From: Okamejei kenojei | Taxonomy: Eukaryota | Direction: 5' to 3' | DNA length: 64,000 nucleotides | Assembly: GCA_035221665.1 (NCBI GenBank) | Contig: CM069174.1 | Coordinates: 9,424,001 to 9,488,000, forward strand | Shown here: one piece after another, positions 13,001 through 62,976 of the stretch | How the letters are laid out: every line of letters begins with the position of its first letter | Position numbering within the stretch: the stretch's first letter is position 1 | Position numbers and translations under genes: made by a program | Notes under the pieces: generated by a model | Told to the model about the DNA's origin: nothing | The model's input: only the letters and a program-made list of their open reading frames with translations | Databases searched by the model: none

Positions 13001-13226
13001 TGTGTTTAGATTGTTTGTTTTTATTATTGGGTGAGGGTTATCTATTTGCGATCCCAATCAGTGAATCTCAACAGTGATGGCGAAGGGTGGGCTGAGACAC
13101 AATGGCTACGATGCCATTGCTGGAACATGGGAGGATTCTCAGCTCAGGCACCAGGTTAAATGACACCTATATTTGGGCCCCGTTCAATTACTTAAGCCAT
13201 ATCCAACTAGTTTTCAGTAGATGTAT

Positions 13227-13363
13227 CTTCTTCTGTCGTGTGGCGTGCACAGCCTAAAGTTATTGGACAACTTGTTTTATTTTATCTTCCGTTTGTGCGC
13301 AGTCGAGTTGATTGCATTAGTCGAAACAGGACGGACCACGTGAAGGTTGCAATCTTCCACCCC
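13227..13363 (-). mobile_element. ~137-bp ribozyme-headed SINE-like retroelement, copy 1
   Basis: TSD agtagatgtat at 13216-13226 and 13364-13374; minus-strand 3' tail ...gacagaagaag; near-identical to 21449-21578. Confidence 0.85.
13310..13363 (-). ncRNA. Minimal HDV-like (CPEB3-type) self-cleaving ribozyme, predicted
   Basis: Minus strand reads GGGGTGG AA GATTGCA ACC TTCACGT GGT CCGTCCT G T-TTCG-A CTAA TGCAATC, i.e. P1, J1/2, P2, P3, L3, P3', P1', P1.1/mini-P4, J4/2 with the catalytic C, and P2'. All helices pair and the G1-U wobble is present. Confidence 0.8.
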
Positions 13364-13607
13364 AGTAGATGTATAATCATATGTGACTAATATTTGACCA
13401 TCTTGATCAAAGTGGCAAATGTGCATAATTGGAAATGCCACACGGGCATAGTTAAGGGTGAGAAATCACTGAGAAATTTTAGTTGGCAGCCAGACTGCTT
13501 TATTCTGATGACACCAAAGTGAATTTACATTGCCAAATGATTGAACGTTTCAGCATGTGCACATATAGTCAGGATGGAATGTGACATCTAGTGATGAAGT
13601 AGTTATA

Positions 13608-21448: not shown

Positions 21449-21578
21449 ATTTCGTGTGGCGTGCACAGCCTAAAGTTGTTGGACAACTTGTTCTATTTGA
21501 TCTTCCGTTTGTGCACGTCGAGTTGATTGGATTAGTCGAAACAGGGCGGACCACGTGAAGGTTGCAATCTCCCACCCC
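21449..21578 (-). mobile_element. Ribozyme-headed SINE-like retroelement, copy 2
   Basis: TSD aagaacat at 21441-21448 and 21579-21586; body matches 13227-13363. Confidence 0.85.
21525..21578 (-). ncRNA. Minimal HDV-like ribozyme, predicted (one P2 mismatch)
   Basis: GGGGTGG GA GATTGCA ACC TTCACGT GGT CCGCCCT GTTTCGA CTAA TCCAATC. Confidence 0.75.
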
Positions 21579-36252: not shown

Positions 36253-38981
36253 AATTAAATCAGATACGGGAGAAATATTAACATTACCCAAGGATATTAA
36301 TGATAGATTCTCTCAATACTATCAAACACTTTATTCAACCAAAACGGCAGAGGGCTCTGTAGGAATGGAATTATTTTTACAGAATTGTAACCTTACTGGT
36401 TTAGATTTGAAAGAGAGGGAATTATTATGGGCCGAAATATCAGTAAAAGATATTGAGGAATCTATTAATTCTCTAAAAAATGGAAAGGCCGCTGGACCAG
36501 ATGGTTTTAATAGTGAATTTTATAAAAAATTTCATGATTTGATCTCGCCACGCCTACAGACATTATATACGCAAGCATTCATGCAACAGAAACTCCCAGA
36601 AACCTTAAACGAATCTACTATTATACTTATTCCAAAAACGGATAAGGACCTTGAAGATCCAGGTTCATATAGAGCAATTGCTCTATTAAACATCGATCAG
36701 AAAATGTTAACCAAAATTTTAGATCACAGATTAAGCTTAGTGATTTATAAATTAATACACCCCGATCAAACTGGCTTTATTCCAAAACGTTATTCATATT
36801 ATAATTTGAGACGATTATTCAACATTATATACTCAAATCGAATAGCTAATGAAGACTTAGCAGTCATCTCGCTAGACGCTGAGAAAGCATTCGATCAAAT
36901 TGTATGACCCTATTTATTTTCGGTGATGGAAAAATTTCAATTAGTTGAGAAGTTTTGTACATGGGTTAAGCTTTTATATACCAATCCAACAGCCAGAATA
37001 ATGACAAATCAAATGTTATCTAAAAAAAAATGATTTATCTAAAGGTTGTAGACAAGGATGTCCGTTATCACCATTACTATTTGCTCTTGTTATAGAACCA
37101 CTAGCAGAAATAATTCAAGCTCATCCAGAAATATATGGGTATAATACTAAAAATACAGTTAATAAAATTTCTCTATATGTAGATGATGTATTACTATATA
37201 TTACAAATCCAGAAATTAGTATCCCTAATCTGTTAAATCTTATAACTCAATTTGATTTATTTTCGAGATATAGAATTAACTGGAAGAAGAGTGAGATTAT
37301 GCCAATAATGGAACCTAATGTATACATATTACAACAATCACCTTTTAAAATAGTGAATGAAAAATTTAAATACTTAGGAATCTATGTGACCAAGAAATAT
37401 ACTTCTTTATTTAAATCAAATTTCGTGCCTTTACTTAATAAATTGCATAAGAATATTCAATACTGGAAAACGCTTCCTATTTCAATGCTCGGTAAAATTA
37501 ATGCAATTAAAATGATTTTCCTTCCTCAACTTCTATTCCTCTTCCAATCAATTCTAATATACCTACCTACAAATTTCTTTTAAAAAATTGACTCTATTGT
37601 AACAAGTTTTATTTGGAATTATAAGAATCACAGAATAAGTAAAAAACACTTATGTAAATCTAAGACGAACGGAGGATTAGTCTTACCAAATTTCTTATTT
37701 TATTTCTGGGCAGTCAATGTCAAAAACTTAAATTTCTGGTTGGAAGATATGGATCAACAACCAGATTGGTTAAAGATGGAAAAGGAGGACTGTCTGCCAT
37801 TTGAAATTGATCCGATTCTCCTATCCCCTACAAAATTGAACAAAAAGATCTATAGTGAAAAATCCAATAATACATAGCGGTATTCGAATTTGGAAACAAA
37901 TAAAAAAAACATTAAAATTGGATAATTTATCACTTTCGCTCCCTATTGCAAATAACCCTTAATTTAAGCCTTCGGTATTGGATAAAGGCTTCACACAATG
38001 GAAAAACAATGGAATTAAAAAGATGGGACATCTTTATAGAAATGGTATGTTCCTCTCATTTCTGGAGGTACAACAGAATTATGGATTACATTCAAATATT
38101 TTTTTTAGATATTTACAATTGAAAGATTATGTTAAATCACATACACAAGAATACAGAATTAGAGAGCCAGAGATTCTAGATGAATGTTTGAATAAACATC
38201 CCAACACAGTCAAATTAATATCATATATTTACAATATTCTGTTAGATAGTGAGAATCCGTCGACGGAATCACATAGACAAGCATGGGAAAATGAATTAGT
38301 TCAACCCATAACGAAAGATATTTGGGGTGAAAGCCTACAACATATACATCAATGTTCGTTAAACGCCAGACATTCTTTGATACAATTTAAAATATTACAC
38401 AGATTGTATTATTCTAAAACAAAATTAAACAGAATTTTTCCTAATATCTCTCCTATCTGTGATAAATGTCAATATTCTGAGGCTAATTTAACCCATACCT
38501 TTGTAAATTGCATAAAAATTAAAACATTTTGGGTGGATATTTTTTAAATTATTTCCGTAGTGGTTAATAGTCAACTGGATCCCGATCCTAAATTAATAAT
38601 ATTGGGCATATCTGAACAATACCTAAAACTGACAAAGAAATGTCCTGGATTATAGTATAATAACTGGGAAAAAACTAATATTAAAATTTGGAAAAACCCT
38701 GCATCCCCTACAATTAAAATGTGGATTATGGAGATCTCGGAGACATTAAATCTGGAAAAAATTAGATTTGTCTTAATCGACGAACCTGAATTAGTTATTA
38801 GAATATGGTCCCCGTTCATAGATTATTTGAAGGGGTAGAATGGGCCAGCGCTGAGGCTCGGCGGAAGCTTGAACCCAGGACTAGACGAATAGTTTTGTTT
38901 TCTGTACCTACGGACCTATCTCCTAAGTTGTATTATAAAATTTAAAAAATAGAAAAAAAAAAAAAAATAACATTTAAAAAA
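36253..38981 (+). mobile_element. 5'-truncated L1-clade LINE (ORF2 reverse transcriptase plus CCHC), inactivated, 15-bp TSD
   Basis: Peptides KAAGPDGF, SYRAIALLN, HPDQTGF, SLDAEKAFD, GCRQGCPLSPLLF, LYVDD, KYLGI and CDKC..H....C, broken by stops and frameshifts. A-rich tail; TSD aaactcatactattg at 36238-36252 and 38982-38996. Confidence 0.95.
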
Positions 38982-50700: not shown

Positions 50701-50861
50701 NNNNNNNNNNNNNNNNNNNNNNNNNNNNNNNNNNNNNNNNNNNNNNNNNNNNNNNNNNNNNNNNNNNNNNNNNNNNNNNNNNNNNNNNNNNNNNNNNNNN
50801 NNNNNNNNNNNNNNNNNNNNNNNNNNNNNNNNNNNNNNNNNNNNNNNNNNNNNNNNNNNNN
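50701..50861. other. Assembly gap (161 N)
   Basis: Run of N. Confidence 1.
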
Positions 50862-62359: not shown

Positions 62360-62976
62360 TTTCCAAGACGTTTCCTCAACTACGGCCTAATAACGGCGAA
62401 AAAATTAATACTCAAATTGTGGAAGCAGACAACAGTCCCTACAGTGAAGATGTGGATTACAGATATGTCCGAGACACTACATTTGGAAACCATTAGGCTT
62501 GTCTTGGCGGAAAAAGCAGATCAATTTCTTAAGACAGCTTAAGAAGATTACCTTTTACTTCTTGCGTATGGCGTGCACAATCTTATTTGATTGTGCACGC
62601 CGGATTGATTGCATTTGTCGAAACGGGGGGGGGGGGGAGAAACCACGTGAAGGTTGCAATCTCCCACTCCGTCCTGAATTTCTGCAACAGAATGGTTAAA
62701 CGCAAATTTAAACCTGATGCCAGGGATGGGTGAGGGGGGGGAGAAAGGTATATCTCCATTTTCTCTTCGTATTTCTTTTCTCTTGCACTTCATTAGTAGC
62801 TTAGGGGTCTTTTTCTTGCTCTCTTATTTTACTACTTTTTCTTCATTCTCTTTTTTCCTTTTTTTCTTTTTTTTTAGGTTACAATGTTAAAAATGAAGCT
62901 GTGCAATAATTGTATAACTTATGTCGATCGTCTTATCCCTGAACAATTGCTTCTAATAAAATTAATTCAAAAAAAA
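62360..62976 (+). mobile_element. L1-clade 3' fragment with 12-bp TSD and a nested insertion
   Basis: AKKLILKLWKQTTVPTVKMWITDMSETLHLETIR resembles the end of the 36253-38981 L1; TSD atcaggctttta at 62348-62359 and 62977-62988. Confidence 0.85.
62558..62670 (-). mobile_element. Ribozyme-headed SINE-like element, copy 3 (variant, P1 disrupted)
   Basis: GGAGTGG GA GATTGCA ACC TTCACGT GGT [TTCT-polyC] GTTTCGA CAAA TGCAATC, then a 13-bp hairpin and a cgcaagaag tail. Confidence 0.75.

Follow-up and report, generated by a model that had tools for sequence, protein, structure and literature searches.

The 64,000-nucleotide stretch of Okamejei kenojei DNA analyzed in this study (the window) contains, on the minus strand at 13363-13227, a 137-nt non-coding retro-insertion that is flanked by an 11-bp target site duplication (TSD). 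Judged from its sequence, the first 54 nt of this element fit the HDV-like double pseudoknot in the register of the CPEB3 ribozyme, without P4. We consider it probable that the element is a non-autonomous derivative of a LINE with a ribozyme at its head and that its source copies cleave themselves at G1, the first base, and it most likely represents a bipartite derivative of an APE-type LINE, composed of a LINE 5' end and a LINE 3' end, from the Vingi/Ingi group. It is already known that a ribozyme can free a non-autonomous element from a cotranscript and that LINE derivatives can be headed by ribozymes; what appears to be new is that a ribozyme without P4 stands at the head of a vertebrate element with a high copy number. 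Our literature search, which ran outside Repbase, Dfam and key subscription papers, found no description of the 137-nt family, nor of any vertebrate element with a head that lacks P4.

The insertion in the window

The element, its parts and its two further copies in the window were placed as follows.

13364..13374, minus strand: 5' TSD, 11 bp, adjoining G1; a single copy at the empty site in sequencing runs X5 and X8
13310..13363, minus strand: HDV-like P4-less (theta/minimal type) ribozyme fold, 54 nt; predicted cut 5' of G1 (13363)
13357..13363, minus strand: P1 5' strand, nt 1-7, pairing with 13334-13328 (nt 30-36), G1.U36
13348..13354, minus strand: P2 5' strand, nt 10-16, pairing with 13316-13310 (nt 48-54), 7 Watson-Crick pairs
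13335..13347, minus strand: P3-L3-P3, nt 17-29, with U20, C22 and G25; P3 is 17-19/27-29 and L3 is 20-26, UUCACGU
13317..13327, minus strand: G37-U38, 5-nt linker replacing P4, and J4/2 CUAA; P1.1 is C22-G37
13320, minus strand: C44, putative catalytic base within J4/2 CUAA
13235..13309, minus strand: body, a long outer hairpin enclosing an inner 6-7-bp stem-loop
13227..13234, minus strand: (AAG)n tail
13216..13226, minus strand: 3' TSD, 11 bp
21452..21578, minus strand: second copy of the 137-nt family; one mismatch in the P2 3' strand
62558..62670, minus strand: third copy, older and damaged, with a C-run expansion in P1' and an internal deletion; 3' end approximate

An earlier note on this DNA had proposed a 54-nt nested double pseudoknot that starts at 13363 next to an 11-bp TSD, and all of the parts that it named are present on the minus strand. 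By comparison of contigs, the orthologous site is empty in two of the four other sequencing runs; the 137-nt element is found in contigs of all four, and loose contig ends cluster at 13363/13364 in each of the four runs and also at the tail. Because of the TSDs and the empty orthologous sites, the element is considered to have been inserted by retroposition. When the 150 longest of the 404 unmasked open reading frames of the window were compared with Pfam, the element was not placed inside any gene; the same comparison identified a C1q-domain exon fragment at 600-803 and a reverse-transcriptase fragment at 36254-36904, both on the plus strand. A run of N occupies 50701-50861.

The P1 proposed in the earlier note (GGGGTGG/CCGTCCT, opened by G1-U) does pair, but in the window copy it includes three wobbles (G1.U36, G4.U33 and U5.G32), and the U at nt 33 (C>U, position 13331) is private to this copy; at this site the other four runs have C in 98-99.5% of their depth. 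P1 of the family is therefore better than that of the window copy. Decay of a CpG was considered as the source of the change at nt 33 and was rejected, since the site is not a CpG.

The fold of the element head

The head follows the order P1 (7 bp), J1/2 (2 nt), P2 (7 bp) and P3 (3 bp) in a nested double pseudoknot. A 7-bp P1 with G1-Y at the cut site is a feature of HDV-like ribozymes (PMC6326823), and such a P1 is present here with G1.U36 as its opening pair. Further HDV-like features are P1.1, formed by the single pair C22-G37 with U21/U38, the bases U20 and G25 in L3, and a J4/2 of the form C-N-R-A, which is CUAA in subfamily A and CGAA in subfamilies B and D; only the latter two agree with the stricter CRRA form. 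The classical P4 helix is missing, and a 5-nt linker stands in its place. There is at most one U-A pair over the UUCG loop, so that what the earlier note took for a shrunken P4 (T-TTCG-A) is better described as the absence of P4.

In order to evaluate how often such a fold would be expected by chance, we used a fold descriptor that was built on published constraints but composed after the sequence had been seen. It had one match in the 64-kb window, the element head at 13363, and none when both strands of 3.84 Mb of sequence from 60 second-order Markov simulations were scanned, nor in any of 20,000 dinucleotide-shuffled versions of the head. With the catalytic C of the descriptor replaced by A, G or T, the numbers of matches in the window were 0, 0 and 0. 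In 851 kb of retrieved loci there were 51 matches, all of them in the 137-nt family, against 0, 0 and 1 in the three controls. Nested folding gave z scores of +1.07 for the head, -0.04 for a near-majority head and -3.55 for the body hairpin of a subfamily-B copy; the weak values for the head are as expected for a pseudoknot. The covariance models for HDV and CPEB3, to which the earlier note had looked for confirmation, provided none: Rfam at the gathering score detected no HDV/CPEB3 or tRNA family in the window, and at E values up to 10 it gave no HDV-clan or tRNA match for 10 copies. In another HDV-like ribozyme, there was almost no activity with spacers of 0-1 nt, whereas spacers of 3-7 nt gave increasing rates (PMC4908430); J1/2 of the element has only 2 nt, as does that of CPEB3. 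We hold the fold to be real because the theta ribozymes of phages and the CPEB3 ribozyme match it, and its strong support is thus external to the family.

Copy number, ends and subfamilies

The family has more than 10^4 copies, 136-138 nt in length, in the 2.76-Gb genome. An exact pattern for the head core had 7,638 matches and a 19-mer from the body had 9,516, with 0 matches for the reversed control in both cases; these numbers are lower bounds, as diverged copies and subfamily D escape exact patterns. Since the leading position of the body 19-mer passes about three in four copies, the number of copies is estimated at about 12,700. The copies lack an ORF, end in a microsatellite tail and are flanked by heterogeneous genomic DNA with TSDs.

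The claim that the element's 5' end is at G1 was borne out by copies that had been retrieved by their tails. By eye, the head is present and starts at G1 in 96 of the 100 tail-anchored matches listed. Fifty tail-anchored copies were fetched, a set that includes all four headless ones, and in 45 of them the alignment starts at position 1-3. Another copy carries an internal deletion behind an intact head, and the remaining four have no head in the segment examined, one of these being split by a later insertion. TSDs of at least 8 bp were found in 115 of 146 distinct full-length copies from a mixed set of loci; 79 of these 115 have 11-12 bp and 92 adjoin G1. However, short elements are often full-length anyway, and therefore a sharply defined 5' end is no proof of cleavage. 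The base preceding G1 in the 146 copies is T in 93 (31% in the flanks) and G in 17 (21% in the flanks). The excess of T may reflect a non-templated A on the cDNA or a target preference. An extra G at a 5' junction can derive from a cap, and the lack of G enrichment at this position would fit an uncapped template.

Measured against a reference copy, the 27 copies of subfamily A have a median distance of 3.7% and the 23 copies of subfamily B one of 5.8%, and the head is fully intact in 17 of 50 copies; we propose that most inserted copies decay neutrally, with about a third retaining an intact head. The majority sequences of A and B differ in nine columns of the body and, in the head, only at position 8 (J1/2) and at the free J4/2 position 45. 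The covariation that the earlier note had looked to across copies comes from other families: within this family no pair has a change on both sides. U5.G32 has become U5-A32 in subfamily D (A32 in 14/14 copies). The letters of the catalytic site (G1.U36, U20, G25, C44, A46 and A47) are in the majority in every subfamily examined. The substitution U29>C, which disrupts the first P3 pair, occurs in 5 of 26 subfamily-A copies and in 7 of the 100 head-core matches listed.

A deletion of 10 nt that removes exactly the P3' and P1' strands, between direct repeats of 2 nt, was found in 39 copies genome-wide (15 with an A body, 23 with B and 1 with C). The possibility that these copies are a ribozyme-dead subfamily was rejected on account of query bias and of the three backgrounds, which indicate recurrent loss. 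The deletion has recurred without being amplified, which hints weakly that the head is needed in source copies, and it may have arisen by slippage of the reverse transcriptase across the pseudoknot. In three other copies (C1:86081568, C4:37358027 and C12:33602024) the segment between the P2 strands is seemingly inverted, and the breakpoint falls at the inverted repeat formed by P2. One head-only copy lies in antisense close to an exon that resembles part of a neuroligin gene.

The presumed partner LINE

No autonomous partner with the same head or tail emerged from our searches of this assembly. Several old RTE families were detected in the genome with DUF6451 and RTE endonuclease queries. One of them, 3.26 kb in length, ends in (AAG)n and has 11-12-bp TSDs in 6 copies, a count in which most of the 32 tail rows are without a reliable call; the 5' end of a second RTE family matches head positions 10-30 of the element at 19 of 21 nt. 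On these grounds a local RTE-clade LINE might mobilize the element, whose head would then descend from an RTE 5' end. We regard this as somewhat unlikely. Four RTE families (RTE-a, RTE-b, RTE-e and RTE-f) do have a P1 of 7 bp that opens at their first base, with strands that vary between the families yet stay paired, and a P3-L3-P3-like core, but their heads start with C (a C1-G first pair), have UUG(U/A)CGU as L3 and P1.1 flipped to G22-C37, and lack CNAA. The element has no similarity to the 3' UTR of either of the two RTE families above, nor to that of any other RTE family wherever 3' ends were visible, the 3' ends of some families lying outside the examined DNA. Furthermore, an equal identity of the core is attained by phage theta ribozymes, probably through convergence, and it is the Vingi heads that share L3, GU and CGAA with the element (PMC5786205). 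The type of head thus points to Vingi/Ingi, while the tail and the TSDs are compatible with RTE. Of the possible partners we lean slightly towards a Vingi/Ingi LINE; a partner that is neither Vingi/Ingi nor RTE is quite unlikely. The statement in the earlier note that the element borrows an RTE-type reverse transcriptase is therefore doubtful, given the absence of a shared 3' UTR, the different heads of the local RTEs and the closer heads of Vingi.

Pattern searches of the genome for an autonomous RTE sharing head and tail, as the earlier note had envisaged, did not yield one. No recurring neighbor was seen among the first 100 of 336 matches to the body pattern next to foreign upstream DNA or among the first 100 of 771 matches to the corresponding tail pattern, and there was no LINE among the first 100 of 197 matches to the head pattern with other downstream DNA; the matches listed are indel, truncated, inverted or interrupted copies, and a parent element that is rare or has diverged would escape exact patterns of this kind. 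No matching LINE was present in four long loci where foreign DNA follows downstream. Queries with PF14529 and a Nimb-like endonuclease retrieved no Vingi from the genome, the matches being saturated by Nimb-like, CR1 and L2-group copies.

Two other observations were made on the LINEs of this genome. Many RTE-a matches cover only residues 1-60/70 of the query, at the start of the ORF, which suggests that an internally deleted RTE-a derivative family exists. There is also a young two-ORF LINE with an open frame of 1,276 aa, an RNase H-like C terminus and many copies at 93-99% protein identity, which we read as Nimb/I-like.

Proposed mechanism and alternatives

The mechanism that we favor begins with a host transcript that would read through a source copy. 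The 54-nt P4-less ribozyme would then cut 5' of G1, as its fold and its analogues lead one to expect, and the cut RNA would keep an uncapped 5'-OH end that is resistant to nucleases, again by analogy (PMC11331408). A LINE protein would bind the body hairpin, probably a LINE-derived 3' recognition element, together with the AAG tail, and would nick the DNA with a stagger of 11-12 bp, which is the length observed in the TSDs. Target-primed reverse transcription would run until the RNA template ends, in many cases with one or two bases added; the ends and the extra bases are those observed in the copies.

Several features of the element count against a cleaving head, namely the 2-nt J1/2, the one-pair P1.1, the lack of an Rfam match and the copies with U29>C. 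Three of them (J1/2, P1.1 and the U29>C lineage) are also what would be expected if the fold were real but served mainly as a protective 5' structure and/or overlapped an internal promoter at G1, with cleavage being slow or dispensable. For instance, an HDV-like fold in R2 templates raises insertion apart from cleavage (PMC11331408), Pr77 of L1Tc/NARTc is both promoter and ribozyme (PMC4035085), and the four local RTE families have kept a 5' P1/P3/L3 fold without a canonical G1 or CNAA. However, the catalytic-site letters, which are the majority in the examined subfamilies, match those of the theta and CPEB3 ribozymes that cleave, and heads without P3' and P1' arose on three backgrounds and yet number 39 versus 7,638. 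We therefore consider a mainly protective or promoter role of the fold unlikely.

It is very improbable that the pseudoknot arose by chance in what is really a degenerate SINE of the Pol III (tRNA) type, an explanation that has largely been refuted. The majority sequence does lack a T4 run, Rfam gave no ribozyme match, and positions 38-46 bear a weak likeness to a B box. On the other hand, no tRNA was detected by ARAGORN in any of 13 element loci or by Rfam at E values up to 10 in 10 loci, which agrees with the earlier note in that there is no tRNA head; the chance controls were empty; the fold opens at the first base of the element; and independent natural ribozymes match it. Self-cleavage of source copies at G1 remains the reading that we prefer.

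A more demanding proposal, which we put forward tentatively, is that all of this combines into a vertebrate retroposon so far undescribed, about 137 nt long, which carries an active P4-less theta-type ribozyme and can therefore do without a Pol III head. If it is true, host transcripts would be cut by the intact copies inserted in them, of which there are thousands; HDV-like ribozymes in introns would thereby have been put to a natural experiment, and the family would provide a living model for the turning of a Vingi-type head into the CPEB3 ribozyme. If the ribozyme is active, a 54-nt ribozyme and an 80-nt tail would suffice for more than 10^4 retrotranspositions, and thousands of ribozyme insertions with the same sequence would be available to test for selection against sense-strand intronic copies. 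Activity would also give a eukaryotic role to the minimal HDV-like fold, the origin and functions of which have been described as open (PMC10879173). In addition, the compact head and tail would be of practical interest for two-RNA insertion systems based on Vingi/RTE (PMC13708176).

Comparison with known ribozymes and elements

The CPEB3 ribozyme and the element share a common register over nt 1-38, with G1.U36, U20, U21, C22, G25, G37 and U38 (PMC4836649, PMC6326823). The statement in the earlier note that UUCACGU is the L3 of CPEB3 proved to be right, since the two loops are identical (PMC6326823 supplement), whereas the sequences of P2 and P3 differ and the element has no P4. The 5' ends of Vingi elements from gharial, crocodile, lancelet and sea urchin have been reported to be G-rich with GU, and with CGAA in three of the four (PMC5786205); two of the four also have UUCACGU as L3 (PMC5786205 supplement). 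They thus resemble the element in the G-rich P1 and the GU, and subfamilies B and D in particular in the CGAA (PMC5786205). When the Vingi-2_Gav 5' end was compared by eye with the human CPEB3 ribozyme, 29 of 32 positions matched (PMC5786205, PMC6326823). This likeness of sequence suggests that the CPEB3 ribozyme could be a domesticated Vingi-type 5' end; CPEB3 goes unmentioned in the main text of PMC5786205.

Theta ribozymes are P4-less, cleave in vitro and are inactivated by a C>U change, and minimal HDV-like members without P4 have been described (bioRxiv 2023.06.13.544163). Nearly 99% of theta ribozymes are in Caudoviricetes, and the survey, with a set including human, mouse and protist genomes, gave just 12 bacterial matches (PMC10879173). 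The theta data file has 410 rows with a 13-nt P3-L3-P3 core identical to that of the element, and it also includes a row with GU, a 5-nt L4 and CUAA, like the element (PMC10879173). Common to both are the lack of P4, a 7-bp P1, a 2-nt J1/2, a 7-bp P2, ACC/GGU as P3, a short L4 and CUAA. In contrast, theta ribozymes have a phage host and G1 at the 3' end of a tRNA, whereas the element is found in a vertebrate, with TSD flanks and no tRNA. When the head core was used for scanning, 2 stretches from metagenomes and 110 from viruses matched, 80 of the latter being examined. Among 64 distinct phage/metagenome cores, 28 have a perfect 7/7 P1 at the spacing of the element, with other P1 sequences, compared with a mean of 2.2 and a maximum of 8 in 2,000 permutations, in which related contigs are not independent; this comparison scores P1 alone, and the strict descriptor, which disallows P2 bulges, passes 6 of 82 phage/metagenome loci. 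All but one of the 28 cores start with G, and 11 sit directly 3' of a tRNA; we assign them to the theta ribozymes. Thirteen phage loci have an HDV-like motif with the core of the element and a perfect P1, but no adjacent tRNA by ARAGORN and another downstream build. The identity between the cores of the element and of theta is likely a convergence.

Ribozyme-headed derivatives have been described for several LINEs. R2 SIDE and R2/R1 SIDE are non-autonomous elements of this kind, with SIDE heads that are active in vitro (PMC3414825). The heads of NARTc, RIME and SIDER are HDV-like, the hallmark head of trypanosomatids having 77 nt, and those of NARTco and several SIDERs cleave in vitro, although some well-folded SIDER heads are inactive (PMC4035085). 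RTE, Ingi, Vingi and R2 yield bipartite derivatives that retain the LINE 5' end (PMC5786205), and, according to a review, hammerhead or HDV-like ribozymes are employed by some of the non-autonomous SINEs (PMC6765202). Strictly defined, however, a SINE is transcribed by Pol III and has a small-RNA head (PMC3414825), and neither Rfam nor ARAGORN found a tRNA-, 7SL- or 5S-derived head in the element. By the usual definition the 137-nt element does not count as a SINE but as a non-autonomous derivative of a LINE, so that of the term SINE-like retroelement in the earlier note, the TSD-flanked, high-copy retro-insertion stands and the SINE does not. Like the SIDE, NARTc, RIME, SIDER and bipartite RTE-Vingi derivatives, the element is short and non-coding, with a ribozyme fold at the first base, a probable LINE-type 3' end and TSDs; it differs from them in being a dispersed vertebrate family of more than 10^4 copies with a P4-less head of 54 nt.
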